This document shows positions 1 through 23,585 of a stretch of 23,585 nt of DNA, piece by piece. Every line of letters starts with the position of its first letter. Within the stretch, counting starts at the first letter, position 1. The notes beneath the pieces were generated by a model that was given only the letters and a program-made list of their open reading frames with translations, was not told the origin of the DNA and made no database searches. Source of the stretch: a virus (lineage: Duplodnaviria; Heunggongvirae; Uroviricota; Caudoviricetes); the IMG/VR virus record IMGVR_UViG_2565956613_000007; one strand, given 5' to 3'. A program made the translations under genes and the position numbers.

Positions 1-17
1 TCACCGCTGGTACCGAG

Positions 18-1004: not shown

Positions 1005-1071
1005 GCAACAAATGACCGGTTGAGAAGTTACTTTGCATACCATTACCTCCTGACAACGTAGGAGGGAACTT

Positions 1072-1401
1072 GTGCTTGACACACAGGAATTAGCTCCAGT
1101 TGCTATTGCGCTCCTGCTTTCAGTAATTGGTGGGATAGGCACGTTCCTGATGGATGTCCGAGACGGTCGCCAGTCTGGCAATTTGTTGGGATTGGTTACG
1201 GAGATCTTTGTTGCAGTGACAGCTGGCGCGGTGGCGTACCTATTGGGGCAACACGAGGGCTGGGAGTTATCAATTACGTACTTAATGGTAACGATAGCCA
1301 GCAATAACGGTCATGAGGTGATTTCAGGGATGAAACGAGTGAATATCGATAGCATTCTGAATGTTCTTACAAGTTTGGTGAAAAAGGGAGGCGGGAAATG
1401 A
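1072..1401 (+). CDS. lydA: Holin-like membrane protein (109 aa)
   Basis: GTG start 6 nt downstream of GGAGGG. Hydrophobic segments (VAIALLLSVIGGIGTFL, IFVAVTAGAVAYLLG) and a charged C-terminus. Position immediately upstream of the Dar operon matches my memory of P1 lydA; the symbol rests on synteny. Confidence 0.6.
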   Translation: MLDTQELAPVAIALLLSVIGGIGTFLMDVRDGRQSGNLLGLVTEIFVAVTAGAVAYLLGQHEGWELSITYLMVTIASNNGHEVISGMKRVNIDSILNVLTSLVKKGGGK

Positions 1402-1841
1402 TTGGCTGGGGTGTATGCGTTCTTGCGTTAGCCTTAGCCGATCGCTATTTGCTAAAACGCAAGGACATCACGCATTTAGAACTTGGTGATGTGGAAATTA
1501 AACCGGGTTTCATCCGGGTGCCGTTCAAGTACCGGTCTAAATTCCCGTTTTTGCGCGGCGCAACGGTCAGATATTGGATCCGCGATGTTCAGAAGCCGAC
1601 GACAGTGATTGAAGGTGAACAACGTTGTCTGACGTCGGCTGAACAGGGCGAAAACAGTGAATGGTTGTACATACCCACTGAATATATGGGTAAAGGAGAG
1701 CGACTGTGGCATTTCAACGTCATGGTTACGCATGGCGACTCGTTCATTAACCCGTTGTATCGGATTTTCCCTGTTACTCAGCAAATCCGCAGAAGTTACG
1801 TAATAAATCTCGCACAGGATGTGTCAGATGACGAAAAATAA
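1398..1841 (+). CDS. lydB: Antiholin-like protein (147 aa)
   Basis: ATG overlaps the lydA stop (ATGA) with GGAGG 7 nt upstream, so it is translationally coupled to the holin. Symbol by synteny with P1 as I recall it. Confidence 0.55.
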   Translation: MIGWGVCVLALALADRYLLKRKDITHLELGDVEIKPGFIRVPFKYRSKFPFLRGATVRYWIRDVQKPTTVIEGEQRCLTSAEQGENSEWLYIPTEYMGKGERLWHFNVMVTHGDSFINPLYRIFPVTQQIRRSYVINLAQDVSDDEK

Positions 1842-2430
1842 GTATGCAACGGTCGATTTTGACCAGGTTAATGAAAAGGGGCTGAAATCCCTTATCGCGG
1901 CGATCAATAAAACCGGTGTTACGGTAATTGAGGTTGACTCCAGCAACCGCGCAACAACGAAAGATGGCGTTAAAGTTAAAACCGCAAAGCTGGTTCTTAA
2001 CGACGGACAAATTCTTGCCATACAGGTAAACGATACTGGCGATATATCGTCTGTGAAGCTGAATGGAAAAGCTATTCCTAACGCTCAGTCGCCGGATATC
2101 AAGACGCTTGGTACCGTCATGGGACAGGCGGCCCGCAAAAACTCCGCAAAATTCCAGAAATCACTGATCGCCAAAGCGAAGCGTGTTGCCAATCCGGTAG
2201 ACAAGAAACCGGCAGTTAAATCCAACTTTCAGCGCCTGCAAGAAGCAAAACAGCGGAATGCTCAGGTGGTTGCCGCTTATAAGTCCGCGCAGAATTCGGT
2301 GTCTTTCAATCAACAGCAGATCACTGATTTGCGGGCGAAGCTGGATAAGGAGACGGGCCGACTCAATAACGAAAAGGCACGGAATGGCGAACTCAAACGT
2401 CGTCTTAAGCAACTGAAAGCAGGAAATTAA
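1828..2430 (+). CDS. hdf: Hdf, DarA-related protein of the Dar antirestriction operon (about 200 aa)
   Basis: Preferred start ATG 1828 (AGGA 8 nt upstream) rather than the track start 1819. Shares the heptapeptide KNSAKFQ and a similar basic, K/A-rich context with the next ORF (darA), consistent with Hdf being a homolog of a DarA fragment. Confidence 0.6.
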   Translation: MTKNKYATVDFDQVNEKGLKSLIAAINKTGVTVIEVDSSNRATTKDGVKVKTAKLVLNDGQILAIQVNDTGDISSVKLNGKAIPNAQSPDIKTLGTVMGQAARKNSAKFQKSLIAKAKRVANPVDKKPAVKSNFQRLQEAKQRNAQVVAAYKSAQNSVSFNQQQITDLRAKLDKETGRLNNEKARNGELKRRLKQLKAGN

Positions 2431-2431
2431 C

Positions 2432-4351: not shown

Positions 4352-4713
4352 CACTATCAGCTATTGAGTTAATGGATCTCAGCGATAAGTTGGATGCTCT
4401 GATGTCCAAAGCGGCTACCGCGAGTGGCATGGAGTTGCTGGATATCAGCGATGAAATTGACCAGATCATGCAACAGATGGGGTACGGTGTGTCCGGCGGC
4501 AGTAGTGGCGAGGAAAAACAACCTGCGGTACATGATGGTGTGCCAAAACTGGTTGCTGATTTCCTGGCTGATAAATTCGTCGATCAGAGCACCGATGCAT
4601 TTATCGGTACCTTGCAGGATTTGAGTCAATATGTTGGCACATACATCGACCTGGACCAGGTTAAACAGCACACGGCGGCATGGATAGCCGCCAACATTAA
4701 AGAGGCAGCATAA
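4348..4713 (+). CDS. ddrA: DdrA-like small acidic protein (121 aa)
   Basis: ATG overlaps the darA stop (ATGA), so it is translationally coupled. Acidic protein in the position of P1 ddrA. Confidence 0.58.
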   Translation: MTLSAIELMDLSDKLDALMSKAATASGMELLDISDEIDQIMQQMGYGVSGGSSGEEKQPAVHDGVPKLVADFLADKFVDQSTDAFIGTLQDLSQYVGTYIDLDQVKQHTAAWIAANIKEAA

Positions 4714-4725
4714 GGCGTAACAGGG

Positions 4726-7713
4726 ATGAGCTTAAGCGATCAGGTGGTAATGGCCACCAGCATAGAAACGCTGATCGAGCTGCTAAAGAACCTGCCCGAT
4801 TATGGGCGGGTTTCGTATGTGGTGACAGCGAAGGGAGACGAGGTAAAAACAGCGTTTGATATCGTCGATGCCTCAGTTCTTTTGGTATCCAATACTCTGG
4901 ATGGGAAAATTAATCCAGACTATCCCCAGGAACTTCAGCCGCGCGACCGGACCCGCGCATCCAGCCTTCTTCAGGTCAACCAGATATCCAAGGATTTGCG
5001 TCCTGCCCAGCTTACCGATTCCGGTTTATCCAGCCATGGCGCGCCAATAATTGGTGAGGACAATGCCGTTGAGTCAGGTAATGGGCGGACCATGGGGATC
5101 ATTAAAGCCTATCAGGACGGTAATGCGGATCGGTATCGGGAGTACCTGATTGAACATGCGACCGAATTCGGCATACGGCCTGAAAAGGTTGAATCAATGA
5201 CGGCTCCGGTACTGGTGCGCCGCCGGTTAACGAAGGTTGACCGTGTTCAGTTTGCCAAGGACTCAAATATTTCTGATCTCCAGGAAATGGCAGCCAGTGA
5301 AAAGGCTTTTGTTGATGCCGACAGCATAACACCGGCGATGATGGCGCTTTTTAACCCGTCAGAAAGCGGAGATCTGCTTAGCCGCAGTAATGACGCGTTT
5401 ATTCGCGGATTTATGACGCAAGTTGGTGCCACACAGGCGGCTGGCCTTGTAACTGAAGATGGGCGACCAACACGGCAACTTGTAGACCGTATACAAAACG
5501 CGATCTTTGCCAAGGCATATAAGGATGCGCGCCTGGTAAGGATGGTTGCAGAAGAACCTGATCCGGATATGCGTAATGTTCTGACGGCGCTTAATGCGGC
5601 AGCCAATGATTTTGTCCAGATGCAGGCTTTATCAGGAGAAGCGCACAAGCAGGCTGTGACAACTATTGTTGATGGCATTGAGACAGCGGATAGCCTCGAT
5701 AAAAAGGCGCTGGCGGCATTGAAAGATGCGGTAGACCTGGTAAGGCAATCGAAGGAGTCAGGCCAGCATATTACCGATGTTATTGCTCAGGGGGATATGT
5801 TCAGCGAAACGGCCCCGGAAGTGAAAGCACTCGCGTTGTTCATCGTCGCGAATAACCGTAGTGCGAAGCGTATGGCCACCGCCTTTAAGTTGATGGCGCA
5901 ACGTATCAATGATGAGTTACAGCACCAGGGCCAGGCGCTCGGGGATATGTTTGGCGGCGGCGATGTGTCGTTACAGGATATCCTTCGCCAAGTATCTCAG
6001 GAACTGGAAAACGAAGGTATGCAAGGGATATCTGGCGGTCTTTTCGAGTCAGCTTCTGGCGGTAGTTACAACGGTGTTGCTCCATATACCAGCTTGCTAT
6101 TACATCGGGCATCCGGCATCAAAGACATTATTCATCTGATCAGGCTGCTTTCCCGTACAGATCCCCAGGATGAACAGCTTGTTCAAGTGCTTGCGCATTT
6201 TGTTCGAATGCCTGTTGCCGACGTGAAAAAATGGTGCCGATTATTCGGTATCAGCAATTCGTTACTTCGCGGCTTGTTAAATCACGCATCCTCCCTTGGG
6301 CGCGATGGCTTTGACGAGATAGCGCAGGCGATAAAAAACGGAGATATGCCACCAGCTATTGACTGGTTTTCCATTCGCCCAACCAGGGTGAAAGCATTCC
6401 TTAGCGCGGCGCAATCAGTATCACCATTGGCAGAAATGGTTCAGAGGTTATCGCTCATATTCACAGACCATACCGCGTTGGGAGATCTGACTCTGGACGA
6501 GATGAAGGAAGCCTCCATTCAGTGGGCCGATCAACAAAATGAGGTTAACTCAGACTTCTTGCCAGCATTCAGGAAGGCCGTTAGTAAAGCTGATGATGCC
6601 CGTGGAATTCTGAAGGCATTTAAGGCATTGCAAAGTCAGGTTAATAAACATGTCGGTGATATCGATGGGGTAACGGCGGAAGGCAGGGATATCCTTAAAG
6701 AGCACGGCATAACGCCAGAGTTTATTGATGAGATCAGGACTGATATGCAGCGTGAGGTCGTATCGTCACTGCAAATCGTAGCCAGAGCGTTGGCGGATGC
6801 TAATCCGAAGAGTGCGGCCATTGTTAACCGTGTTATTGGTGATATTGAAGCATCGGAGGGCATGGGGGCGCTGAAACTCTTCCTTTCGCGAGCGTTTAAT
6901 CCTAACGGCAATATTCTCCCCGGCATTATTGGTGAGGCTAAAAAGTATGTCAGCGAAGAAGAACTTGAGCAGCTTGACCAACTACTTAAGCGATTCTCAT
7001 ATAACCCGCAGACACGCTGGCAAATGAATCAGCGAAGTATGGGTTCGGTCCACGAGAAAGTGTTATCTGCCATGAACAGTGCGATCGCAAACTCATCCGT
7101 ATCTGAAGAAAAAGCTCTTGAGTGGGCCGACTCTTTTATCACGGAAGAAGTGGAAGAAGCCCGCGCTGGACAGAATGGTGGGATAGACCTGCGCAAGGAA
7201 CTTGCTGATATTTATCGCCTGACCGGCGGTAAAATTTCGACCTTATCAAAGGTGGTTCACCACCAGGGAAGGGCATATGCAAATCTTAATGGTGTTGTTG
7301 CTGTCAATTTGAACGATGAAAATGCAAGTGCACTGTGGCACGAGCTGGGTCATCATCTTGAGTACAGTAACCCTGGTTTGTTAGAGAAAGCCCGGTCATT
7401 CCTGAAGGCCAATGTTGAAGGGGATAAGCCATCTTTCGTTAATATCGGTGGGCGTGGCAAGCCTGAATGGTGCTTCAGATCTCGATTGAGTAATATTTAT
7501 ATGGCGAAGGTATACCCGCCAGCCTCAGTAAGTAACACCGGGAAAATTCGGCAGAAATCACCGACTATTTCCAAAACGTCAGCAACGGAAGTATTCTCTA
7601 TGGCTCTTCAGTTGTATCATGACAAAGAGGCCGCTGCCGCATCACTGATGAATGGTGACGGATTGCTGGAACTGTTATTAGGTGTGGCAAAGGAGCTAAA
7701 TAATGCAGATTAA
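4726..7713 (+). CDS. ddrB: DdrB-like large protein (995 aa)
   Basis: Long uninterrupted ORF directly downstream of ddrA on the same strand. Size and position match P1 ddrB as I recall it; no enzymatic motif recognised. Confidence 0.62.
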   Translation: MSLSDQVVMATSIETLIELLKNLPDYGRVSYVVTAKGDEVKTAFDIVDASVLLVSNTLDGKINPDYPQELQPRDRTRASSLLQVNQISKDLRPAQLTDSGLSSHGAPIIGEDNAVESGNGRTMGIIKAYQDGNADRYREYLIEHATEFGIRPEKVESMTAPVLVRRRLTKVDRVQFAKDSNISDLQEMAASEKAFVDADSITPAMMALFNPSESGDLLSRSNDAFIRGFMTQVGATQAAGLVTEDGRPTRQLVDRIQNAIFAKAYKDARLVRMVAEEPDPDMRNVLTALNAAANDFVQMQALSGEAHKQAVTTIVDGIETADSLDKKALAALKDAVDLVRQSKESGQHITDVIAQGDMFSETAPEVKALALFIVANNRSAKRMATAFKLMAQRINDELQHQGQALGDMFGGGDVSLQDILRQVSQELENEGMQGISGGLFESASGGSYNGVAPYTSLLLHRASGIKDIIHLIRLLSRTDPQDEQLVQVLAHFVRMPVADVKKWCRLFGISNSLLRGLLNHASSLGRDGFDEIAQAIKNGDMPPAIDWFSIRPTRVKAFLSAAQSVSPLAEMVQRLSLIFTDHTALGDLTLDEMKEASIQWADQQNEVNSDFLPAFRKAVSKADDARGILKAFKALQSQVNKHVGDIDGVTAEGRDILKEHGITPEFIDEIRTDMQREVVSSLQIVARALADANPKSAAIVNRVIGDIEASEGMGALKLFLSRAFNPNGNILPGIIGEAKKYVSEEELEQLDQLLKRFSYNPQTRWQMNQRSMGSVHEKVLSAMNSAIANSSVSEEKALEWADSFITEEVEEARAGQNGGIDLRKELADIYRLTGGKISTLSKVVHHQGRAYANLNGVVAVNLNDENASALWHELGHHLEYSNPGLLEKARSFLKANVEGDKPSFVNIGGRGKPEWCFRSRLSNIYMAKVYPPASVSNTGKIRQKSPTISKTSATEVFSMALQLYHDKEAAAASLMNGDGLLELLLGVAKELNNAD

Positions 7714-8014
7714 AATCGCAGCGCCATTAGGCGGAGATGCCATTATCGAATTTGATGATAATGAAGAAGTTTCCGGGCGTTTAAGCATTATCTCCGGTGA
7801 CATTACCGAGGACATGATCGCTGAAGCCATAGCTGGGGCAAATCCCAATAGCTATATGGGATTCGTTAACACCCTTGATGCTCCCGCAAGTGATGTTCTC
7901 CGAACGCTGCATCTTTACGCTGGCTGGTTTGTTGATTGGCCAGCAGTAGATGGTGGCGATGAGGACGACGACGACGATGATTTTGGTGATCATGTAGACC
8001 AGATCGTATATTGA
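7703..8014 (+). CDS. Small acidic protein with a poly-Asp C-terminal tract (103 aa)
   Basis: ATG overlaps the end of ddrB with AAGGAG 8 nt upstream. The C-terminus DGGDEDDDDDDFGDHVDQIVY is strongly acidic. It is the last gene of the dar operon before a terminator. Confidence 0.55.
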   Translation: MQIKIAAPLGGDAIIEFDDNEEVSGRLSIISGDITEDMIAEAIAGANPNSYMGFVNTLDAPASDVLRTLHLYAGWFVDWPAVDGGDEDDDDDDFGDHVDQIVY

Positions 8015-8837: not shown

Positions 8838-9515
8838 TCACTCCACTACAAACCAGTCACATGCCAGTAAGTCGCCTACAGAAGGAACCCACGGAACAAC
8901 TACACCTTGTGCATTTTTTAAGGCGAAATAAGCACCATACGGAACGAGGTCGCCGGGGAAATATCCCTTAATGGCTTCCATTCGTGCCGGGTACTGTCCT
9001 TCAGGAACCAGCCAGCAGAATTGGTTTTCGCCGTTCCACCCGCGTCGAGCAACTTTCTTGCCATCCTTCAGCCACATCAGCGCGTCAGAAAAGTCGGCTG
9101 CTTCAAGGTCGATTTCTTCTTGTAGAGTAGCGATACCGCCAGCAGAAATAGTTACGTCCCTGGCTGTAATGAATGTCACCCCATTGTGACCTTCAATGCT
9201 GAGCGATACCCCATTTTCGAAGAAGTCGTTAGTCCGACTAAAGCCTTCTTCAAATGTTTTTTCTGGTGAATAGGACAGAGATCCGTCCTCATAAGCGACC
9301 AGATATCCGCCAATTTCTGGTCGGTGTTTTTGCAAAAACATTTTATCAACATGGACTTTTACCCCTTCTGGCTCAACGACTTCGATGTTGCAAAGAAGGA
9401 CCACATCCATTAGGGCGATAATTTCGATATCTTTGATTTTTGAGGCGCGAACTGTTTTATGGCTTTTGTATTTTGGAAGTGCCGTCAAAAGCTCTTTCGT
9501 TGTCATGTTATTCAT
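8838..9515 (-). CDS. Two-domain protein (225 aa) with a C-terminal DUF2829/Tad2-like domain
   Basis: Preferred start ATG at 9515 with the strong SD GAGGAAAG; the track extends it to 9683 without good initiation signals. C-terminal segment FSDALMWLKDGKKVARRGWNGENQFCWLVPEG ... GDLLACDWFVVE fits the pattern I associate with DUF2829 (the family that includes the Thoeris anti-defence protein Tad2). This is a from-memory assignment. Confidence 0.55.
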   Translation of the reverse strand: MNNMTTKELLTALPKYKSHKTVRASKIKDIEIIALMDVVLLCNIEVVEPEGVKVHVDKMFLQKHRPEIGGYLVAYEDGSLSYSPEKTFEEGFSRTNDFFENGVSLSIEGHNGVTFITARDVTISAGGIATLQEEIDLEAADFSDALMWLKDGKKVARRGWNGENQFCWLVPEGQYPARMEAIKGYFPGDLVPYGAYFALKNAQGVVVPWVPSVGDLLACDWFVVE

Positions 9516-9529
9516 AGTCTTTCCTCTGC

Positions 9530-9712
9530 TTAAAACCTGATGTCTTGCGCCTTCAGGTGGGTCAGGAATGTTTTCCCACCAGCGAAAGCAATATCTCGGG
9601 GTGTTCTTTTCGTGAAAAGCGCGTGCCATTGCCAACTTTGGCGTTTGTTTGCGAGTTCGTGCTTTTGTCGGCGTCTGGACCACCGCTTTTCTTTCAGTCG
9701 TTTTTTACACAT
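9530..9712 (-). CDS. Possible small basic protein (60 aa)
   Basis: The ATG directly abuts the ssb stop (TGAATG) and the ORF ends 14 nt before the next gene start, so it fills the inter-gene gap exactly. Very Arg/Lys-rich. No SD of its own, so low confidence. Confidence 0.3.
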   Translation of the reverse strand: MCKKRLKEKRWSRRRQKHELANKRQSWQWHALFTKRTPRDIAFAGGKTFLTHLKAQDIRF

Positions 9713-10201
9713 TCAAAACGGAATATCGTCGTCAAAGTCCATTGGAGGTTCGTTATTGGCGTTGCTCTGAGGTTTACCGCCACCACTGTATTGCTGGTGG
9801 TTTTGAGGTTGGTTTGATTGCCCCCAGCCATTTGAGGACTGTGAATCGTCACGGCGAGCGCCGATCATTTGCATGGTGCCGCCCTGGCTGACGATAATTT
9901 CCGTCGTGTAACGTTCTACACCGGCGTCATCTGTCCACTTACGGGTTTTAAGTTTCCCTTCGATGTAGACCTGAGAACCTTTTCGTAAATATTCACTCGC
10001 AATTTCAGCAAGTTTTCCGAACAAAACTACTTTATGCCATTCTGTTTGCTCTTTCTGTTGGCCCGTTTGCTTGTCGCGCCATGATTCATTCGTTGCGATG
10101 CTGAGTCTTCCGACCGCGCCGCCATTTGGTATATACCTGATCTCCGGGTCTTGCCCCAGGGTACCAATCAGGATGACTTTGTTTACACCGCGTTGTGCCA
10201 C
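9713..10201 (-). CDS. ssb: Single-stranded DNA-binding protein (162 aa)
   Basis: Classic SSB OB-fold sequence ([18 protein letters not shown] ... [14 protein letters not shown]), a Gly/Gln-rich linker and the acidic C-terminal tail MDFDDDIPF. Confidence 0.92.
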
Positions 10202-10220
10202 TTATCTTACCTAATAAAAT

Positions 10221-10237
10221 AAATTAATTAGAGCAAT
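10221..10237 (-). promoter_or_regulatory. C1 repressor operator-like 17-mer (16 of 17 match to the consensus ATTGCTCTAATAAATTT as I recall it)
   Basis: Seen in sequence: the minus strand reads ATTGCTCTAATTAATTT, located 20 to 36 bp upstream of the ssb start in the ssb/lyz divergent region. Confidence 0.5.
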
Positions 10238-10260
10238 AATGTATATCTTTGAAACGTGGC

Positions 10261-10282
10261 TAACAAGTGATTTGCATTATCC
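10261..10282 (+). promoter_or_regulatory. Putative late-promoter element TAACAAGTGA plus downstream AT-rich hexamer
   Basis: Seen in sequence: TAACAAGTGA at 10261..10270 followed by tttgcaTTATCC, about 90 bp upstream of lyz. The same 10-mer recurs upstream of prt; the ACAAGTGA core recurs upstream of the gene at 22558..23199. Confidence 0.4.
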
Positions 10283-10370
10283 TGTGCCTTCTAAAGGGAT
10301 CGAGTCAGTCGGTATTGGCTGTGAATGAGTGTTTGTCCTGGAGCGTAAAAAATTCGCTTATGAGGTCTTT

Positions 10371-10928
10371 ATGAAGGGAAAAACAGCCGCAGGAGGCGGT
10401 GCAATTTGCGCTATCGCGGTGATGATTACCATCGTGATGGGTAATGGCAATGTGCGAACCAACCAGGCGGGGCTTGAGCTGATTGGTAACGCTGAAGGTT
10501 GCCGACGTGATCCATACATGTGCCCGGCGGGGGTATGGACTGACGGGATTGGTAATACACACGGGGTAACGCCGGGTGTGCGAAAAACCGACCAGCAAAT
10601 CGCCGCTGATTGGGAAAAGAATATCCTGATCGCTGAACGCTGTATTAATCAGCACTTCCGGGGCAAAGACATGCCCGATAATGCCTTCAGTGCAATGACA
10701 AGCGCGGCATTCAATATGGGATGCAATAGCTTACGAACCTACTACAGCAAAGCGCGAGGCATGCGAGTAGAAACGTCCATCCACAAGTGGGCGCAGAAAG
10801 GGGAATGGGTGAATATGTGTAACCATCTCCCTGATTTCGTGAACAGTAACGGCGTGCCCCTGCGAGGTTTAAAGATTCGCCGTGAAAAAGAACGCCAGCT
10901 TTGCCTGACAGGACTGGTCAATGAATAA
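10371..10928 (+). CDS. lyz: SAR endolysin, T4-lysozyme-like fold (185 aa)
   Basis: Preferred start ATG 10371 (GAGG upstream). N-terminal signal-anchor-release segment AAGGGAICAIAVMITIVMG. With this start, Cys13, Glu42, Cys44, Cys51 and Thr57 fall at the positions I recall for P1 Lyz. Confidence 0.88.
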   Translation: MKGKTAAGGGAICAIAVMITIVMGNGNVRTNQAGLELIGNAEGCRRDPYMCPAGVWTDGIGNTHGVTPGVRKTDQQIAADWEKNILIAERCINQHFRGKDMPDNAFSAMTSAAFNMGCNSLRTYYSKARGMRVETSIHKWAQKGEWVNMCNHLPDFVNSNGVPLRGLKIRREKERQLCLTGLVNE

Positions 10929-11175
10929 ACTCCGGCAGCTCCGCCGACTTTCGACAATGAAGTTATCGCTGGCGGCGATAGTTTTCGACTCGATTTTCAT
11001 GGCGGTATATGTGCTCAATGAGACGTGGCCACTGGAACCGCTATTGTATGCTGGGCTTCGGCTGTGCCTGACATTTTTGAGCATGGCTGCAAGATTGATG
11101 CAGCAGAAAGAAACCGCTTCAGATTGTCCACGCCGCGCGGTGCGCAAATATATGGCACGCAGGCGAAGGCGATAA
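10921..11175 (+). CDS. Small membrane protein (84 aa) with a poly-Arg C-terminus, translationally coupled to lyz
   Basis: ATG overlaps the lyz stop (ATGAATAA). Hydrophobic core LSLAAIVFDSIFMAVYVL and C-terminus RKYMARRRRR. Possibly lysis-associated; function not established. Confidence 0.45.
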   Translation: MNKLRQLRRLSTMKLSLAAIVFDSIFMAVYVLNETWPLEPLLYAGLRLCLTFLSMAARLMQQKETASDCPRRAVRKYMARRRRR

Positions 11176-11188
11176 TAGTTAACGAGAA

Positions 11189-11214
11189 CCCCGGCAGCCG
11201 CCGGGGTTATTTTT
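11189..11214 (+). terminator. Rho-independent terminator after the lyz operon
   Basis: Seen in sequence: CCCCGGC-agcc-GCCGGGG stem-loop followed by TTATTTTT. It lies between the convergent lyz operon and pro. Confidence 0.7.
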
Positions 11215-11219
11215 GGTGG

Positions 11220-13950
<2,731 letters not shown>

Positions 13951-13984
13951 TTAATTAGAATAATTCGCATCGTGTTTGAACGGA

Positions 13985-14006
13985 ATTTAACACTAGTCAC
14001 TTGTTA
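13985..14006 (-). promoter_or_regulatory. Putative late-promoter element for prt within a near-palindromic 21-bp sequence
   Basis: Seen in sequence: the minus strand reads TAACAAGTGActagtgTTAAAT. The surrounding 21-mer TTAACA-AGTGACTAG-TGTTAA has 6-bp inverted arms and sits in the 75-bp prt/darB divergent spacer. Confidence 0.4.
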
Positions 14007-14016
14007 AGGATTACCA

Positions 14017-17000
14017 ATGAACAAGCTATCTATGGGGGTGTTTCGCTGTTCAAGTGTCAGCGAAATATTGAAATACATTAGGGCAATAACATCTCACCGA
14101 GCGCCGATTAGATACGGCGTGGAAAAGGTGGAAGGCAAAAGCTATGACCGACTACGCCGGGAGGCGAATCAGAAGGCGATTGATTTGCTTAATTCGCTGG
14201 TGGACGGCGCGACACTGACAGATGAACAGCGCCAGATCCTGGCTGGGTACACCGGTGAAGGCGGCATTGGCGGGTCCGTCTCCGAATATTACACACCAAA
14301 GCCGATCGCTGAAGGTGTCTGGGAGATCATGAAGCTCTACGGCGCGGACGTAGGTAACACTCTGGAACCATCGGCGGGCACCGGCGTTTTTAATGAGACA
14401 AAACCGGTTGGTACGGTGATGACTGCGACTGAGATCAGCAGTGTTTCCGGTCGTATAAACCAGCTGTTACACCCGGAAGACAGCGTACAGATTTCCCCGT
14501 TCGAACAGCTGGCTGTAAGCACGCCTAACGATTCATTCGACCATGTTGTGGGTAACGTTCCGTTCGGTGGTCGTGATAACACACGCAACATCGATAAGCC
14601 TTACGCAGAAGAAACGGACATGGGTTCTTACTTCATGCTCCGCATGCTGGACAAGATAAAGCCAGGCGGATTCATGTGCGTGATTGTGCCGCCGTCCATT
14701 GTTTCAGGTTCAAACATGAAGCGGTTACGCCTGCGCCTATCACGGAAAGCTGAATTTCTTGGTGCTCACCGCTTGCCTACCGGTACTTTTGACGCAAACG
14801 GGACCAGTACAGTCGTTGATGTGGTGCTGATGCGCAAACATCCGGCAGAGATGGCTGAGAAAATCCCCCTGGTGGATGAAAGCACTCTTGAATCGGCAAA
14901 TGTGCTTTGGCCAACGTTTATTTCTGGCAAGTGGTTTGAAAAGGACGGTCGCCGGTTTGTTCATGGCACCCAGGAGAAGGGATTCCAGGGGCGTATTGAG
15001 GTTCGTGCCGACGGGCAGATTGATAACCAGGCTCTTAAAGCGAAGCTGATTCATCGTTTCGAAAGTCGTATCGACTGGTCTTTACTCAATATGGCTGAAC
15101 CGTCACCGACCGCAGACGTTGTTGATGAAGGGGAAATGCGCCTGATTAATGGCGTATGGCAAAAATATGCTGGTGGTCGCTGGATTGAATCTGATGCAGG
15201 GAAGGAGCTGAAGATTGATGTTGCCAGTTATGGCGCGGACAGCTGGGAGGCTCTTCAGCGTAACCTGACTACAACAGAAGGCCGTCTCGGTATGACATTT
15301 ACCCAGATGGCAAATGTCCGCGATAAGTACACCACATCAATCAGCGACGATATGGTGCAGCTGGTGGACTGGATTAACAGCCAGCCTGAAAAATACCGTG
15401 AACGCTTGTATCGCGGGGCGATGATTGGCCGGATGTTAATTGAATATCAGGACATGAAGGCCGCCGGGCATAGTGCTGAACAAATCGAACAGCAGCGCCT
15501 TTCTCTGGTATCCCGTTTGCAGGCAGAGATTGACCGTTTTGGTAACCCCGGTCGCGGTCCGATAGCGAAATTATCGGGGAGCGGTGCGCGCGCCTGGTTT
15601 GCTTTCCGTGGTGCAATTAAGCTGGATGGCACTATTTCTGACGAGCTGACAGGAAAACTGGTTACGCATGATTCCAGCGCCAGTTATGACTCCACCAGCT
15701 ATCAGGACACCCTGCGTTATCTCTACAGTGATCTCACTCGCGATCCAATCCAGCTCGATGATTTCCGCCTTGCGTTTACCGGCGAACTGCCAGCCAGTGA
15801 TGACGAGTTGCTTAATTTATTGGCCAGCACCCCTGGCATTGCGGTTTCACCGTATGGCGGGATTGTTCCGTTCGCCCGCGCCACCAGCGGAGACATTAAC
15901 GAGATAGTGGCACCAAAACAGGAATTCCTTGCCACACTCCCCGACGGTCCAGTAAAGAACAACGTCCTTAATCAGCTGGCAGCGATCGAAGAGAAGCGCA
16001 TCAAGACGCCAGCAGAGAATATCCGCTTTAAGCTCAATAGCCGTTGGTTCGACCGTTCCGTCATTCTGGAATTTTTGCAGGAAAACGGCTATCCGGATCT
16101 TCGCTATGTGCAGTCAGTGCAGCTGGAAGGCGACGAAATGGTTTCTGACACCTATCACGGTGGTGATGGTCTGTTCGTCGGGCACCGATACGGTGTTGTC
16201 CAGCGCAAGGATAAAGAAACAGGCGAGATCCGCTACGAGTGGGACCGTAAATCAGGTGAAAACGCGACCGGGTTCCCGGCACAGCTGGAAAAGTATCTCA
16301 ATGGTGCGCGTATCGGTGGCAAAGATAGCGCGACGGCGAACGGCTACCGCGAGCAGATGGCACTGCTTGAGGACCAGTTCAATAAGTGGATCAAGACGCA
16401 CGATCGCTACGATGAACTGGTTGCCAAATACAACGATGTGTTCAATAGCAATATCCCGTATGAACACTCTGGCGATCCGCTTGGGTTGAAGGGATTAAGC
16501 GGTAAGCGCCAGCCATTTGATTACCAGAATAGCGAAGTGCGCCGACTGTCCGAAGATGGGCGCGGCATCCTGGGCTTCGGCACCGGGCTGGGTAAAACTA
16601 CGACCGCGCTGGCGCTTGAAGCGTTCAACTATGAGAACGGTCGCTCCACCCGTACTGCGTATGTAGTGCCTAAATCAGTGCTGGAAAACTGGTATTACGA
16701 AGCAAAAGAATTCCTGAGTGAAGAGGCATTCAGTAACTACCTGTTCGTCGGTCTTGATGTGCTGATGGATGGCGATCAGATTCGCCAGGTGCCGGTGCTC
16801 GATGAGAACGGTAAACCTGTTCTTGGTACTGATGGCACTCCAGTTATGCGCGATGCCCTAAAACTGGCAGATGAAGCCACTATCACGGCGCGGATGAACG
16901 CGATCCCGCACTCAAATTACCGTGCAGTCGTGTTTACCAAAGAACAATACGCCCGCATTCCGCTACGTGATGACACCGTAGATGAGCATGCACAGGATAT

Positions 17001-20000
17001 GCTTTATGACTTCGTTGCCGCCGGGCGCGTAGCCAGCGCAATGGACTCCGACTCCCACCGCAAAGAGGCCGCGCGTCGCCGGGTATTGTCGGAGTATTCA
17101 GATACCGGCACCGAAAAAGCAGAGAAGTATCCGTACTTTGAGGATATGGGCTTCGATAGTGTGATCGCTGACGAAGGTCACAACTACCGCAATAGCTATA
17201 AAAATGGTCGCGAAGCGTCACAACTGGCCTATCTGCCCACCAGCGCGGTGGCGCAATCGGCGCGGGATATGGCAATTAAAAACGCGTACCTGATGAAAAA
17301 GAATGGTGGGCGCGGACCGGTTCTCCTGACTGCAACGCCAGTCGTTAACACCCCGATCGATGCATACAACATGCTTTCTCATGTGCTGCCGAAGGAATAC
17401 TGGCAGAAGATGGGGATCTACGGTCCTGATGACTTCGTTAAATTCTTCGGCAAGACCAGGCTGGAAACGGTACAGAAAATCAGCGGTGAAGTTGAAGAAA
17501 AAATGGCGCTGGTGGGCTTTGAAAACCTTGATGCGCTGCGCGGCATATTCCATCGCTGGACAACGCTTAAAACGGCGGAAGACGTTAAGGATACCGTGGA
17601 GATCCCGGAACTGGACGAGCACCAGCAGGATGCACCACTTACTGAAGAACAACTGGCGGCGTATGAAGAATTACGTCAGCAGGCGGAAGCGGCAGCAAAA
17701 GCCAACAATGGCGTAACGACCTCGGTCAATGAAGACGGCGTGATTGAGCACGAGAAAGCCCGTCCGATCTTCTCAATAATCAGGGATATGGACCGCGTAT
17801 GTACTGACATGGACCTGTACTATCGCAGGATCACCTATCGTTTCCTGCCGGAGTACGCCGATGCGGTGCAGCAGCTGGCGGACAGTTTGCCTAAACAAGC
17901 CACCAGCGAAGACGACGACAGTGATGATTCAATCACGCAGCAATCGCAATACTCCCTGATAGATAAGGGCGAGTTTATTCAGTTGCAGGTTCCGGAAGCG
18001 TTCGAGCAGGAAGTGAATAAGCGCCTGGCCAGGTTTGGCATTGACGAACAGACCGTAACTCACCCCGTTACACCCAAATACGCGAAGCTGATCGCCACGC
18101 TGAAGGAGTTTTTCCCGGAAGGTAAGCAAATCATCTTCACGGACGAAAAAACGCAGCACCAGAAGCTCAAGCGCATTATCTGCAATGCTCTTAACCTTGA
18201 ACCTTCAAAGGTGGGGATCCTGAATGCTCAGACGGTTGCCGAGGCAGGTAAAACCGGTAAGAAACTGAAAGCGGTTAAACCGCCGAAAGAGTTACCGGAT
18301 GAACCAACAGATGCACAGATAGCGAAATACAACGAGCAAATGGCTCTGTATGACGCCTATATCGCGCAGCAAAATGAAATGTCGTTGGGCGGTCTGGAAA
18401 AGATTGCTGCCGACTTCCAGGAGGGCCGGACCCCGATCATCATCTGCAACAAAAAGGCAGAGGTGGGTATCAACCTGCATCGAGGAACGACTGACATCCA
18501 TCATCTGACGTTGCCATGGACACCAGCCAGTATCGCACAGCGTAACGGTCGCGGTGCCCGAGTTGGCTCCAACCGTGCAAGCGTACGCGTTCACTACTAC
18601 TGCGGCAAAGGTTCTTTCGATGAATACCGACTGAAGACGCTGAAGCGTAAAGCAGGCTGGATCTCCGATATCCTCCGTTCAGATAAGTCAGAAATGGAGA
18701 ACGCCGACGCCAACGATATGATCGAAATGCAGATGTATACCGCTAAGGATGATGGCGAACGTCTGGCAATGATGCAGGTTCAAATGGATAAGGCGAAAGC
18801 CGCGCAACGCGCTCGCCAGAAAGAACAGGCTACTATCGACCTTCAGAACTACATCAAGGCGCAGCACGCAGCTGGCGAGGATGTGGAGGTACTTACCGCT
18901 GAATTAGAGCGAAGCAAAGCGGAACTTGAAAAGACCACCGCCGAGGTAGCTAAATTCAAACAGACGGTAATGGCCAAAGCAGCTGATAACGCAGACTGGA
19001 AGGCCCGCTGGGGTAGCGTCCATCACACAGACCGTACGTTGTTAGCACAGTATCGCGCGTCGTTGAAAAGCGCCATTCAGCGCAAGGCTAATATCTCTCA
19101 AGCCATCTCCCGCTATGAGAAATTATTGAACCGTACTCAGAAGGCCGCGACGGATATCAAACGCCTGCGCCCGCTGGTGGAGGATGCAATAAATAAAGGC
19201 ATTCTGGATGTTGATCCTGATCTGGTTAACCATGCGAATAAGTTCCTTGTTATCGGCGATCGCTCATGGCGTGTAGGCCAATACTACGATTGTGCCGGTG
19301 ATATCGTTCGCATTAAGTCGCTGGACTTCGACAGCCAGCGCGCAGACGTGGAGATCATCTTTACCTTCAAAGGCACCAAATCGGGTAACTGGGATGTGAA
19401 GACGCTGGATAAACAGGTGGATGTAACTCCCGATGAAGATGCTGTTATGCAGAAAATCAGTGGTGGCGTCTCCATCGCCGGGATTAATGACATCATTTCC
19501 TGTGACGATTTCTACCGTTTCCAGCAGCGCGGCATGATCAAAATCACTGACTCATACGGCGTTCAGACTACAGAGTCAGGCTATAGCATTGATTTTGTTG
19601 GTACCTATACGGCCCCACTGAAGCATGCGGTTTACCCGGATCGCCGTGACGGCGCGCTGAAGTCGTCAATTGCAAAATGGGTGCTTGGTATGATGTCGGA
19701 AGGGAATAACCGCCAGATCCGTTCGGCAGAAACATTCCTGGTTGAATTGTTTGGCTCCAATTATGGCGATGTAATCGCGTCATACGGAGATACGCTATCC
19801 CCTGAAGCAATTCAGGAGAAAATAGTGGATGCGATCGCAAAAATGCCGGAGAAAACAAGCCAGGGGGCTACTCGTAACGGGGATTCTGAACTTGAGGTCA
19901 CCAATGCCATTTTCGGTACCCATGAGTTCCGGGCGTCAGATTATGAGATCACCACAGCACAGTTTGGCACTATTGGCATTTACAGCAATAAAGCCGATAT

Positions 20001-20784
20001 CAAGCAGGCAATGGACGCAGCAAGCGCGCGCATCGCAGCAGAACGGGAAGCCAATCTGAATCATGCAGTCGCCGCACTGACTCAATCGTGGGTAACAGCA
20101 ATCAGGGAGGCCGCCACCACAGGGAAAATCACACCTGCAATTGCGGATGTCGTAAACGACGGCTCTAAATTTATGGATGCCTATAAAATGGATTCGGTGC
20201 AGTTGCCATCAGCCTATGGCCAACTCAGCTATCGCATGACCTACAACCTGGTATCAATGTTTTCCGACCTTGCCATCCTTGGGCTGGTGGATCTTAACGA
20301 GGTTACGCCGGAATTGCTCAGCATGCGCAAGAATCATGTGGAGATATTGCAGAGAATTAACACGGTTCTTGCCGGGCGCACCGATGAAGAGAAACAGGCC
20401 GACGCTGATCGGATAAACCTGGCCCTTGGCAACATCACGGAGGAAGAAATTGCCGCCAGAAACGAGAAACAAGAAGAGTTATCATCAATACAGGGTGATG
20501 CCACCAGCATAGCTCAGTCTCTTGGTCTGAATTATCGCGTATCCACCGCCGACCTGAAGATGATGTACGCACCAAAATTCGCCGCTGGCGAGGTATTTGG
20601 GCTTCAGGAAGCCTCAGGCATGAAAGGCGTTCTTTTCCGTGCCAAAGACGCAATCAAGGCGAAATTCGGCGCTCGCTGGCTGCCAGCGAAGGCGAAGAAC
20701 AGCGATTTCCCGGGTAACTGGTGGATTATCGAGACAAAACACAACGTGGCGGACGTTCTGGCCGTCATCCAACAATACGCATAA
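14017..20784 (+). CDS. darB: DarB-like giant antirestriction protein: N-terminal N6-adenine methyltransferase motifs plus an SF2/SNF2-like helicase domain (2255 aa)
   Basis: AAGGA 6 nt upstream of the ATG. SAM-binding motif LEPSAGTGVF (14362..14391), catalytic-type motif VGNVPFGG (14548..14571), Walker A GFGTGLGKTT (16573..16602), DEGH box (about 17167..17181) and motif VI QRNGRGAR (about 18538..18561). Length matches my recollection of P1 DarB. Confidence 0.88.
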   Translation: MNKLSMGVFRCSSVSEILKYIRAITSHRAPIRYGVEKVEGKSYDRLRREANQKAIDLLNSLVDGATLTDEQRQILAGYTGEGGIGGSVSEYYTPKPIAEGVWEIMKLYGADVGNTLEPSAGTGVFNETKPVGTVMTATEISSVSGRINQLLHPEDSVQISPFEQLAVSTPNDSFDHVVGNVPFGGRDNTRNIDKPYAEETDMGSYFMLRMLDKIKPGGFMCVIVPPSIVSGSNMKRLRLRLSRKAEFLGAHRLPTGTFDANGTSTVVDVVLMRKHPAEMAEKIPLVDESTLESANVLWPTFISGKWFEKDGRRFVHGTQEKGFQGRIEVRADGQIDNQALKAKLIHRFESRIDWSLLNMAEPSPTADVVDEGEMRLINGVWQKYAGGRWIESDAGKELKIDVASYGADSWEALQRNLTTTEGRLGMTFTQMANVRDKYTTSISDDMVQLVDWINSQPEKYRERLYRGAMIGRMLIEYQDMKAAGHSAEQIEQQRLSLVSRLQAEIDRFGNPGRGPIAKLSGSGARAWFAFRGAIKLDGTISDELTGKLVTHDSSASYDSTSYQDTLRYLYSDLTRDPIQLDDFRLAFTGELPASDDELLNLLASTPGIAVSPYGGIVPFARATSGDINEIVAPKQEFLATLPDGPVKNNVLNQLAAIEEKRIKTPAENIRFKLNSRWFDRSVILEFLQENGYPDLRYVQSVQLEGDEMVSDTYHGGDGLFVGHRYGVVQRKDKETGEIRYEWDRKSGENATGFPAQLEKYLNGARIGGKDSATANGYREQMALLEDQFNKWIKTHDRYDELVAKYNDVFNSNIPYEHSGDPLGLKGLSGKRQPFDYQNSEVRRLSEDGRGILGFGTGLGKTTTALALEAFNYENGRSTRTAYVVPKSVLENWYYEAKEFLSEEAFSNYLFVGLDVLMDGDQIRQVPVLDENGKPVLGTDGTPVMRDALKLADEATITARMNAIPHSNYRAVVFTKEQYARIPLRDDTVDEHAQDMLYDFVAAGRVASAMDSDSHRKEAARRRVLSEYSDTGTEKAEKYPYFEDMGFDSVIADEGHNYRNSYKNGREASQLAYLPTSAVAQSARDMAIKNAYLMKKNGGRGPVLLTATPVVNTPIDAYNMLSHVLPKEYWQKMGIYGPDDFVKFFGKTRLETVQKISGEVEEKMALVGFENLDALRGIFHRWTTLKTAEDVKDTVEIPELDEHQQDAPLTEEQLAAYEELRQQAEAAAKANNGVTTSVNEDGVIEHEKARPIFSIIRDMDRVCTDMDLYYRRITYRFLPEYADAVQQLADSLPKQATSEDDDSDDSITQQSQYSLIDKGEFIQLQVPEAFEQEVNKRLARFGIDEQTVTHPVTPKYAKLIATLKEFFPEGKQIIFTDEKTQHQKLKRIICNALNLEPSKVGILNAQTVAEAGKTGKKLKAVKPPKELPDEPTDAQIAKYNEQMALYDAYIAQQNEMSLGGLEKIAADFQEGRTPIIICNKKAEVGINLHRGTTDIHHLTLPWTPASIAQRNGRGARVGSNRASVRVHYYCGKGSFDEYRLKTLKRKAGWISDILRSDKSEMENADANDMIEMQMYTAKDDGERLAMMQVQMDKAKAAQRARQKEQATIDLQNYIKAQHAAGEDVEVLTAELERSKAELEKTTAEVAKFKQTVMAKAADNADWKARWGSVHHTDRTLLAQYRASLKSAIQRKANISQAISRYEKLLNRTQKAATDIKRLRPLVEDAINKGILDVDPDLVNHANKFLVIGDRSWRVGQYYDCAGDIVRIKSLDFDSQRADVEIIFTFKGTKSGNWDVKTLDKQVDVTPDEDAVMQKISGGVSIAGINDIISCDDFYRFQQRGMIKITDSYGVQTTESGYSIDFVGTYTAPLKHAVYPDRRDGALKSSIAKWVLGMMSEGNNRQIRSAETFLVELFGSNYGDVIASYGDTLSPEAIQEKIVDAIAKMPEKTSQGATRNGDSELEVTNAIFGTHEFRASDYEITTAQFGTIGIYSNKADIKQAMDAASARIAAEREANLNHAVAALTQSWVTAIREAATTGKITPAIADVVNDGSKFMDAYKMDSVQLPSAYGQLSYRMTYNLVSMFSDLAILGLVDLNEVTPELLSMRKNHVEILQRINTVLAGRTDEEKQADADRINLALGNITEEEIAARNEKQEELSSIQGDATSIAQSLGLNYRVSTADLKMMYAPKFAAGEVFGLQEASGMKGVLFRAKDAIKAKFGARWLPAKAKNSDFPGNWWIIETKHNVADVLAVIQQYA

Positions 20785-20790
20785 CAGGAG

Positions 20791-20808
20791 CGCCCGGTTC
20801 GCCGGGCG
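20791..20808 (+). ncRNA. GC-rich hairpin with a UUCG tetraloop between the SD and the ulx start codon (structured mRNA element)
   Basis: Seen in sequence: CGCCCGG-ttcg-CCGGGCG, a 7-bp stem, lying between AGGAG (20786..20790) and the ATG at 20818. Confidence 0.5.
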
Positions 20809-20817
20809 TCGCATAAT

Positions 20818-21258
20818 ATGGCCACACTATCTGATACAATAAAACCGAATAAAACATATCTTGAGGCGGTACTCCGTACAGCGTTGTTAGGAAAGACAGA
20901 AGACGAATACGTTGATTTCTTCCTGTCAGGGCTACGCGGGCGATTACTGAAAAATCCCCGCCTGTACCGCAGCTATGGTCCATACTGGCCGGAAATTAAA
21001 AAATTATTACTGGAGCGCGGTTATGGTAATTTCGGTCGTCTCGTTGACCGTGACGTTCGCAAAATTTACCGTTATGACCGCCCGGCGCTGACGCTCATAG
21101 CTGCGACGCTCTACAGCCAGGAGCGTTTTGATAATGGTCAGATATACTCAGCCTGGCATTTACTGCCAGTGCCTGAAGAGGTTGACGACCAGGACTATGA
21201 GTTTGAGTCTTACGATTTGGAAGTTGAAGCCTTAGCACAGGCTGGAGAGAAAACTTGA
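20818..21258 (+). CDS. ulx: Ulx-like protein (146 aa)
   Basis: Position directly downstream of darB on the same strand and upstream of an 82-aa ORF matches P1 darB-ulx-lxc as I recall it. No motif recognised. Confidence 0.5.
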   Translation: MATLSDTIKPNKTYLEAVLRTALLGKTEDEYVDFFLSGLRGRLLKNPRLYRSYGPYWPEIKKLLLERGYGNFGRLVDRDVRKIYRYDRPALTLIAATLYSQERFDNGQIYSAWHLLPVPEEVDDQDYEFESYDLEVEALAQAGEKT

Positions 21259-21503
21259 AAAAGCGATACTACACAGTAAAGCATGGGACGCTACGAGCAT
21301 TACAAGAGTTTGCTGACAAGCATAACGTTGAGGTGCGCAGGGAAGGGGGAAGTAAAGCTCTGCGCATGTACCGTCCGGACGGGAAATGGCGTACGGTCGT
21401 CGATTTCAAAACTAACAGCGTTCCCCAGGGCGTCCGCGATCGGGCATTCGAAGAATGGGAGCAGATCATCATAGATAACGCATTGCTTCTGAATGCTGAT
21501 TGA
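21255..21503 (+). CDS. lxc: Lxc/Bof-like small protein (82 aa), putative C1 co-repressor
   Basis: Apparent TTG start overlapping the ulx stop (TTGA), with GGAGAG 5 nt upstream. The 82-aa length and the position after ulx match my memory of P1 lxc (bof). Symbol by synteny. Confidence 0.5.
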   Translation: MKKRYYTVKHGTLRALQEFADKHNVEVRREGGSKALRMYRPDGKWRTVVDFKTNSVPQGVRDRAFEEWEQIIIDNALLLNAD

Positions 21504-21564: not shown

Positions 21565-22515
21565 ATGAATGTTTTTATTGATACAAATCTATATTTAGAA
21601 TTTTATCGAATGGGTAAGGATAAACTAGATGAGCTAGATAAAGTATTTGCCTTACATCAATATGGTCGTTTAAAACTTTGGTTGCCAGAACTTTTAGTGA
21701 ATGAGTTCTGGAGAAATCGTTCTAAAGTTCTCTCTGAAACCATAAAGGAAATTGCAAAAGACTACAAGCCCGCGCTACCACAGATTTTCAGACAGCATGA
21801 AAAACATTCACTATTTAATGATAAGGTTATAGAAGCTAGTCGGCTAAAGAATGAAATTATTACCGATATACAGAACTTATTTAAAGAAGAGTCTTTAGCT
21901 GCCGATGTTGTAATTAAAAGGATTTTTGATGCAGCGTCTAAGATAGAGGCTGATGATGAAACAATAGAAAAGGGGAAACGCCGATTCGATCTTGGCAACC
22001 CTCCGGGTAAAAATAAATCATATGGTGATGCAGTCAATTGGGAGTGTTTGCTAAAAGCGATACCAAACGGAGAGGATATATACATTATAACTGAAGATGG
22101 TGATTATAAAAGTGCCTTTATAAAGGATGATATGAATGAGTATTTGAAGTACGAGTGGAAAAAGAAGAAAGATTCAGAACCACATATCTATGCCCGCTTA
22201 TCAGAGTTTATAGGCGAGCACTTTCCTCAAGCCAGTAACTTAGCGGAAATGGAAGTTAATTTCACTATAGATGAATTACGCCGCTCAGGCAGTTTTGCCA
22301 CAACACATCGAGTTGTAGCAAAGTTATTAAAATTCAATCATTTTACACAAGAGCAAATCCTAAAAATAATCGATATCTATTTTAATAATGATCAGGTTGG
22401 CTTCATTAAAGATGATGATGATGTAAAACTACTCGCCAGAAGACTAATATCACTTGGTGACGAGGATAAAGATCCTGAAGGGATGCTTGAGCCATTCCGT
22501 GTATTTATTGATTAA
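21565..22515 (+). CDS. PIN-like nuclease-domain protein (316 aa) in an AT-rich acquired cassette; candidate defence/abortive-infection effector
   Basis: ATG with AGGA 6 nt upstream. N-terminal beta-strand with Asp (MNVFIDTN), then LPELLVNEF, DLGNPPGKNKSYGDAVNW and IYIITEDGDY, a spacing of acidic residues typical of PIN-like folds. Codon usage and base composition are visibly AT-rich, unlike the flanking genes. Confidence 0.7.
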   Translation: MNVFIDTNLYLEFYRMGKDKLDELDKVFALHQYGRLKLWLPELLVNEFWRNRSKVLSETIKEIAKDYKPALPQIFRQHEKHSLFNDKVIEASRLKNEIITDIQNLFKEESLAADVVIKRIFDAASKIEADDETIEKGKRRFDLGNPPGKNKSYGDAVNWECLLKAIPNGEDIYIITEDGDYKSAFIKDDMNEYLKYEWKKKKDSEPHIYARLSEFIGEHFPQASNLAEMEVNFTIDELRRSGSFATTHRVVAKLLKFNHFTQEQILKIIDIYFNNDQVGFIKDDDDVKLLARRLISLGDEDKDPEGMLEPFRVFID

Positions 22516-22557: not shown

Positions 22558-23199
22558 TTAAAGATAATTATCTCTGCCGGTTAATGAACCTTGAGGCACT
22601 TTCCGTGCGGTCATTTCATGAGTAGCTTGAATTATATTCACAAGGGAGCTTAGTAACGAAGGTTCTTGGCGGGTATCAATTTCTCCAGCCATTGCCCTGA
22701 TGTAGTCGGAGCTTGCAACGTTGTTGTATTCCGTTGCGAAGCAGCATAACAACGTCAGAACGTGCTCTGTCGTTATTTCGCTCCAGTTGATGTTGAAAAA
22801 TTCATCGCCTTTTTTGTCATGTTCGGAATCGAAGATGCTTTGGTGGAGGATGTATTTGCCGGATTCTTTGCGCGGTAACTTGATCGCTTTCTGGCGTTCC
22901 AGCTCCTTGTAAATCTGCATTGCTTCAATCAGTACCGGCCTGCCGTTCATGAAGGGATCGCGCAACCTTACACGCTGGCCAACTCGACCAGTAATAAAGC
23001 TGTTTTCCTCTTCCACCAGCACGATAAAACCCTTTTCCTCTTTTTCTCGCAATTCGCGCAGCAGCTGGAGTTCCATGTCGCGGCGGCGTTCAGGGTAGCT
23101 GGTACGCTCAGCCATTATCAGCTCGTTGTTGATCCATGCAGCAGTCATTGACGCCGGTTTGCCGACGCTCATCGAAACAACGCATATTTTCTTATCCAT
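22558..23199 (-). CDS. Hypothetical protein (213 aa from the preferred start)
   Basis: Preferred start ATG at 23199 with SD AGGGGG; the track start at 23346 lacks signals and would lie upstream of the putative promoter element. Glu/Arg-rich helical segment ELQLLRELREKEEKG. Convergent with the PIN-like gene. Balanced G+C, so probably a phage backbone gene. Confidence 0.55.
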   Translation of the reverse strand: MDKKICVVSMSVGKPASMTAAWINNELIMAERTSYPERRRDMELQLLRELREKEEKGFIVLVEEENSFITGRVGQRVRLRDPFMNGRPVLIEAMQIYKELERQKAIKLPRKESGKYILHQSIFDSEHDKKGDEFFNINWSEITTEHVLTLLCCFATEYNNVASSDYIRAMAGEIDTRQEPSLLSSLVNIIQATHEMTARKVPQGSLTGRDNYL

Positions 23200-23330
23200 A
23201 GCGCCCCCTACAAAAAAGAAAAGCCACCAGCGGCGGCTTAGCAATACAACAGAAGGTAGCGCCCGGTACTCAGACTGTGCCGTCCATGGAATATTTGAAA
23301 AGGGATCCATCCGTACCGGGCGTGTGATGA

Positions 23331-23350
23331 TTCTGACTGAAGTCACTTGT
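23331..23350 (-). promoter_or_regulatory. Putative late-promoter element (ACAAGTGA core) upstream of the 22558..23199 gene
   Basis: Seen in sequence: the minus strand reads TTGACAactgACAAGTGActtcagTCAGAA, about 130 to 150 nt upstream of the ATG at 23199. Confidence 0.35.
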
Positions 23351-23459
23351 CAGTTGTCAATTATTTATTATTAAAAATAATATATTTATTAGTGCATACA
23401 AATAAGGCACTAAGTGTGCACATTGCAACCTCAGAGAGGAAACATTCAACTAGATTGTT

Positions 23460-23476
23460 GTTGCTCTAATAAATTT
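23460..23476 (+). promoter_or_regulatory. C1 repressor operator-like 17-mer (16 of 17 match to ATTGCTCTAATAAATTT)
   Basis: Seen in sequence: gTTGCTCTAATAAATTT in the AT-rich region at the right end of the window, presumably controlling a gene beyond the window edge or the divergent region. Confidence 0.5.
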
Positions 23477-23585
23477 GATTTATTGAAACAAATAAACTAC
23501 TATTGGACGCCAGACTATTGATCTTCCTGTTGTTCAGGCTTATAGTTCCTACGTCGTAGCAAATTCTGCGACCGGGTTTAGCAGC

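Follow-up and report, generated by a model that had tools for sequence, protein, structure and literature searches.

The P1-like window and its late-promoter sites

The window, that is the whole stretch of 23,585 nucleotides analysed here, was aligned in its entirety by BLAST to the P1 record AF234172.1, with which it shares an overall identity of about 98.5% and is collinear over positions 1-8012 and 9512-21501 at 98.4% identity (Table 1). Between 9000 and 15000 it is 98-99% identical to P1, RCS47, SJ46, P7 and vB_EcoM-Ro157c2YLVW. This resemblance places the window with the P1-like phages or plasmid prophages, as a relative of P1 rather than P1 itself, and it differs from P1 in carrying other DNA in place of part of isaA with IS1, and in place of res/mod. 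The segment 8828-9511 occupies the place of the isaA end and IS1 in P1, and the ORF at 8838-9683 (minus strand, 281 aa) has a C-terminal Tad2-like domain (Thoeris anti-defence 2, PF11195, E = 2.5e-22). The segment 21502-22628 is DNA unrelated to P1 in place of EcoP1 mod and res, and the ORF at 21565-22515 (plus strand, 316 aa) encodes a PIN-domain protein (PIN_12, E = 7.6e-18). On the upstream side of the mat promoter and operator (23398-23585), P1 runs on into ref and the window does not; about 120 bp there are without a match, and the terminal 23516-23585 resembles the P1 c4 immunity region (84%). The lpa gene itself lies outside the 23.6-kb window; among complete relatives, the two closest (SJ46 and RCS47) encode an Lpa that is 99-100% identical to that of P1.

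Intergenic DNA makes up only about 4% of the window, as counted by hand with the ORF list and the P1 map as guides. Four sites of one type lie in intergenic spacers, each co-oriented with its downstream gene (mat, lydA, prt or lyz) and 19-87 nt ahead of the start codon. Three of them hold the recurrent word that the initial annotation had placed in promoter positions, and for these three the placement is borne out. The 10-mer TAACAAGTGA has exactly two matches in the window, at 10261-10270 (plus) and 13997-14006 (minus), and the 8-mer core ACAAGTGA has a third at 23343-23350 (minus); all three copies are in spacers and are oriented to the downstream gene (lyz ATG 10371, prt TTG 13941, mat ATG 23310). 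The mat start used here follows the P1 annotation, where the initial annotation had used the internal ATG at 23199. The annotated ATG gives a mat product of 250 aa (22558-23310, minus) and lies 19 nt past the LPmat −10 with no obvious Shine-Dalgarno sequence, the alternative start at 23199 is preceded by GGGGG, and either may be the true start.

Table 1. Late promoters, neighbouring elements and P1-collinear segments of the window (P1 coordinates refer to AF234172.1; matrix scores are in bits)
Feature	Window position	Strand	Sequence or content	P1 counterpart	Matrix score
LPpro	13984-14006	-	TAAC, AAGTGACTA, GTGT, TAAATT; for prt-pro	LPpro, 17251-17269	28.7 (top match in window)
LPpro parts	5′ flank 14006-14003; −22 box 14002-13994; spacer 13993-13990; −10 13989-13984	-			
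LPlyz	10261-10283	+	TAAC (10261-10264), box AAGTGATTT (10265-10273), GCAT (10274-10277), TATCCT (10278-10283); for lyz-lydD-lydE	LPlyz	25.9
LPmat	23330-23352	-	TGAC, AAGTGACTT, CAGT, CAGAAT; box 23348-23340, −10 23335-23330; for mat	LPmat (former LP2), 2678-2696	26.4
LPdar	1021-1043	+	TGAG, AAGTTACTT, TGCA, TACCAT; for the lydA-lydB-hdf-darA-ddrA-ddrB operon	LPdar, 31212-31230	22.0
P2ssb −35	10261-10266	-	TTGTTA; divergent sigma-70 promoter, former Pr21	P1 annotation (locus L001, 1750-1755)	
PdarB equivalent	13931-13961	+	−35 TTGTCT (13931-13936), −10 TAGAAT (13956-13961); within the prt 5′ end	PdarB, 17292-17322	
Near-palindrome	13987-14007		arms TTAACA (13987-13992) and TGTTAA (14002-14007), around the −22 box		
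darB start region	14007-14019	+	Shine-Dalgarno AAGGA (14007-14011), ATG (14017-14019), abutting the LPpro flank		
darB ORF	14017-20784	+			
Segment	1-8012		cin to hxr	32254-24246	
Segment	8043-8827		part of isaA, 95.7% identity	part of isaA	
Segment	8828-9511			no match (BLAST)	
Segment	9512-21501		isaA end, ssb, lyz, lydD/E, pro, prt, darB, ulx, lxc	21740-9752	
Segment	21502-22628		position of mod and res in P1	no match (BLAST)	
Segment	22629-23397		mat, 96.5% identity	3397-2629	
Segment	23516-23585		c4-region likeness, 84%	48193-48262	

Architecture of the four sites

In the P1 record a late promoter consists of a 9-bp "−22 region", an imperfect inverted repeat with the consensus AAGTGACTT, followed by 4 bp and a −10 hexamer, and 11 such promoters are given (LPmat, LPpro, LPlyz, LPdar, LPs, LPsit, LP23, LP26, LPpmgL, LPhot and LPpac), some of which are predictions rather than mapped starts. 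The consensus was taken from the GenBank features of AF234172.1 and then rebuilt from the sequence; the aligned promoters read (T/C)-R-A-C as 5′ flank, A-A-G-T-G-A-C-T-T as box, N4 as spacer and T-A-n-A-A-T as hexamer, with a −10 that is TAnnnT-like and no usable −35. It follows from this alignment that the 10-mer TAACAAGTGA comprises the four flank bases and the first six bases of the box, namely the flank plus the left two-thirds of the P1 −22 box. The word regarded as the unit by the initial annotation is thus a part of a real element, while the unit proper is the AAGTGACTT box, 4 bp and the −10 hexamer.

The 23-mers of all four sites are identical between the window and P1, and their placement with respect to lyz, prt, mat and lydA is the same. 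Three of them are base for base the annotated LPlyz (described in the record as the "previously identified late promoter of gene 17"), LPpro and LPmat, which agrees with the initial suspicion of a P1-type, Lpa-dependent late-promoter element. The three sites first seen are all real, but a fourth, LPdar, had been missed, because its flank and the central base of its box differ: its word is GAGAAGTTACTT, diverged from the ACAAGTGA core, and the site, upstream of lydA, reads TGAGAAGTTACTT... Each of the four boxes, AAGTGATTT (lyz), AAGTGACTA (pro), AAGTGACTT (mat) and AAGTTACTT (dar), is the −22 region of its P1 counterpart, with the repeat imperfect in LPpro (AAGTGACTA), and in each case a −10 hexamer (TATCCT, TAAATT, CAGAAT and TACCAT, respectively) lies 4 bp past the box. 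The LPmat hexamer CAGAAT is poor, departing from the consensus at position 1, yet it is the annotated LPmat −10 in P1.

As in the P1-type late promoter class, the sites have no sigma-70 −35 element at the normal distance. By inspection, the hexamers at 17-bp spacing are GTGGCT in LPlyz and AATCCT in LPpro, matching TTGACA in three and one of the six bases, respectively. At LPmat, a TTGACA does lie 19 bp upstream of the −10, and P1 annotates a separate predicted promoter there, Pmat, using the same −10. Additionally, the sites agree with the P1 promoters in orthology, and in location and orientation relative to the late operons.

A 23-nt log-odds matrix built from the ten standard-spacing P1 late promoters found exactly four strong matches in the window, the four sites of Table 1, followed by a next match of 10.4 bits over a background of −36 ± 11. 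The degenerate pattern AAGTKAYTW-N4-YANNNT, derived like the 9-mer pattern after the sites had been seen, matches exactly these four sites against 0.01 expected in the window, whereas its 9-mer part alone gives five matches against 1.32 expected. Both matrix and pattern scores are partly circular, because the P1 sites from which they were made include the orthologues of these four; this concern is lessened by the leave-one-out scores of the P1 sites, which are 11.8-25.1 bits with the exception of LPpmgL, a weak prediction at −11.2 bits, and by the scan of Cronobacter phage JK004 described below. Based on the architecture and the agreement with P1, the motif is very probably the upstream half of P1-like phage late promoters.

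The same matrix also picked out an unannotated late-promoter-like site in P1 itself, at 76780-76802 (minus) of AF234172.1 (29380-29402 of locus L003), which reads CAACAAGTGACTGGTGATAACCT, scores 21.1 bits and lies just within the 5′ end of gene 7, facing genes 24, 6 and 5. In JK004, the matrix gave nothing of 8 bits or more at the corresponding place.

The prt/darB spacer

LPpro stands between the divergent genes prt and darB, and its flank abuts the darB Shine-Dalgarno sequence, which accounts for the conserved ATCCTT beside the promoter. The initial annotation had proposed that a near-palindrome in this spacer could serve both genes. Were the LPpro box read in both directions, Lpa would also turn on darB late, and P1 offers a precedent in the single −22 box common to LP26 and LPpmgL, likewise a palindromic box between divergent genes. 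The reverse reading, TAGTCACTT-GTTA-AGGATT, resembles LPpmgL, TAGTCATTT-GTTG-AATATT, and is apparently the sixth-best of 47,126 window positions (4.9 bits, about the sixth value of 5.0); DarB, moreover, is a virion protein that is packaged into virions, and would therefore be needed late. However, 4.9 bits compares with 28.7 bits for the forward reading and 22-28.7 bits for the four sites, the −10 would be AGGATT, without the conserved A at position 2, and a start about 7 nt past it would fall at 14019-14020, beyond both the darB ATG at 14017 and its Shine-Dalgarno sequence, while a 9-bp spacer like that of LPhot would bring the −10 into overlap with the ATG. The prt/darB spacer thus differs from LP26/LPpmgL, of which LPpmgL is itself a poorly scoring member, in that no −10 of its reverse reading is usable and too little room is left before the darB start codon.

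With the matrix, no other late-type site facing darB was found in the window. The annotated source of darB transcription in P1 is PdarB, a separate predicted sigma-70 promoter upstream, which was mapped to the window by hand, and it is the only promoter annotated there as facing darB. Divergent use of the LPpro site for darB is unlikely on this evidence, and a bidirectional late promoter through which Lpa would act on both genes is very improbable; no late-type promoter accounts for a late expression of darB. Separately, TTGTTA at 14001-14006 (plus) was considered as a darB −35 and rejected, since by inspection a −10 at 17-20 bp would lie inside darB codons 3-6 and is poor. The motif is in fact shared, though otherwise than proposed, in the lyz/ssb spacer, where the first six bases of TAACAAGTGA (TAACAA) double as the −35 of P2ssb on the other strand.

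The near-palindrome itself exists, but it is weaker than the initial description of 21 bp implied, being a 6-bp inverted repeat with arms 9 nt apart and 7 of 10 pairs about its centre, and it is not conserved. It might have been a separate element (the operator of a further dimeric protein, or a hairpin in the darB leader), given that its 6-bp arms pair perfectly and that the site would fall in the darB leader if PdarB were used. However, the plus strand over 13968-14030 folds no better as RNA than its shuffles (z = 0.01), and the minimum-energy structure leaves the arms unused; four 6-bp inverted repeats occur within a stretch of 101 bp here alone; and relatives at 83% Prt identity carry TTCACA for the arm TTAACA and, in some, TGTTAC for TGTTAA, changes that are uncompensated. 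Each arm is, moreover, accounted for by the promoter, one being the R-A-C flank 5′ of the box and the other the spacer with the first −10 bases, and such arms are absent from the other late promoters. By inspection, the centre of the near-palindrome (13997) is offset by 1 bp from that of the LPpro box (13998). On this evidence the repeat is probably a chance product of overlapping elements, and a separate signal here is extremely unlikely. Operators of C1 were also considered and set aside, as Ossb (10221-10237) and Omat (about 23381-23398) lie nearby but apart, and their consensus is unrelated.

Conservation among relatives and the late activator

Among the IMG/VR loci around the prt, lyz and mat homologues (80 each), 29, 20 and 25 distinct upstream variants were found, respectively, in which the box and −10 are near-invariant and the flanks variable. 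In the 29 prt variants the box, spacer and −10 are almost unchanged while the remaining spacer varies, and the relatives at 83% Prt identity (L076-L081) carry the module TCACAAGTGACCAGTGTTA(A/C)ATT. In the 20 lyz variants the box and −10 are invariant; one spacer base changes, and one variant has a C-to-T change at the first shown base of the 5′ flank. At mat, loci with unrelated upstream DNA (L209, L228, L242, L223 and L225) still hold TTGACA...TGACAAGTGACTT (or AAATTACTT)...CA(G/A)AAT.

The positional bias upstream of late genes that the initial annotation had put forward as a test holds in P1 and, as an independent case, in JK004, which has an Lpa 67% identical to that of P1. The P1 matrix gives six matches of at least 20 bits and 11 of at least 11.5 bits in this genome. 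Nine of the 11 lie wholly within the intergenic 9.9% of the genome and the other two (3767-3789 and 23653-23675) overlap an adjacent CDS by 3 nt each; all 11 are co-oriented with a start 13-147 nt downstream and have AC directly 5′ of the box. The genes served include counterparts of mat, R, 23, pacA, prt, 26, lyz and pmgC, as assigned from gene size and order, every CDS in the JK004 record being named "hypothetical protein". That a short word merely recurs by chance in AT-rich spacers, without function, is an explanation already refuted and of negligible probability: the 8-mer count taken alone is marginal (three matches against 0.76 expected, with three reached in 2 of 100 shuffles), but the 10-mer occurs twice against 0.04 expected, with at least two matches in none of 100 dinucleotide-preserving shuffles, just as the initial annotation had judged, the full 19-nt pattern shows the excess given above, the sites match annotated P1 promoters exactly, and both conservation and positional bias of the motif are seen in JK004.

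Phage D6 (MF356679.1) was set aside as the independent genome for this positional test in favour of JK004, since the P1 matrix gives only one site above 12 bits in it and its motif is another one. As in P1, lydA, R, 23, prt, 26, 7 and the lysin gene of D6 are preceded by a common motif, about 40-60 nt upstream of the starts, but this motif is AAATCACAnACT rather than AAGTGACTT; it is present upstream of lydA, R, 23, prt, ddrB, 26, 7, pmgB and the lysin orf16. Since the element is kept at 67% Lpa identity in JK004 and replaced at 31% in D6, it follows its activator, and in D6 activator and site look to have co-diverged.

The conservation extends to the flank. Among the ten standard-spacing P1 late promoters, the A and the C 5′ of the box are each present in nine, and the flank AC is also kept in the diverged prt promoters as well as in the top JK004 sites. 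Given these flank frequencies, the conserved core is the asymmetric ACAAGTGAC and not the symmetric 9-mer alone. We tentatively suggest that promoter direction could be set by the asymmetric R-A-C 5′ of the otherwise palindromic box, acting as a functional component of the Lpa site, a reading we consider possible though less than even. The GenBank annotation and the reviews consulted describe only the 9-bp repeat, and the role of the flank may already be known from the original mutational study of Ps.

Late promoters of this general design are familiar from other temperate phages. In those of Mu C and of P2 Ogr/P4 Delta, the site of a phage-encoded activator replaces a poor or absent −35 and the host sigma-70 polymerase uses the −10, with activator families and site sequences that differ from those of P1. 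In P1 there is a further requirement, for SspA of the host as co-activator (PMC1891329). Lpa activates by sequence-specific DNA binding and acts with SspA; it is thought to act via E. coli SspA, an RNA-polymerase-associated protein with no binding of its own to late promoter DNA (PMC1891329). Late, Lpa- and SspA-dependent transcription and binding of Lpa to the box are described in the literature (PMC10695390; PMC1891329; PMC8201110), and lyz is among the late genes dependent on Lpa (PMC8198154; PMC8201110).

In conclusion, the promoters of the window do not differ from P1 LPlyz, LPpro, LPmat and LPdar, of a type whose prototype is Ps (LPs). The finding is ordinary because these sites are described P1 late promoters, and the element is a textbook feature already annotated in P1. 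This work gives exact coordinates for four late promoters in a P1-like element, its importance beyond correct annotation being small, and illustrates that a real regulatory element is recoverable from sequence by a reader without tools. Following the literature on P1, we propose that the phage late promoter activator Lpa (gp10) would bind the box and, with the host RNA-polymerase-associated SspA, could make sigma-70 RNA polymerase start late in infection, and the four copies in the window would then turn on lysis (lyz, and the lydA operon with darA), head morphogenesis (prt and pro) and maturation control (mat).
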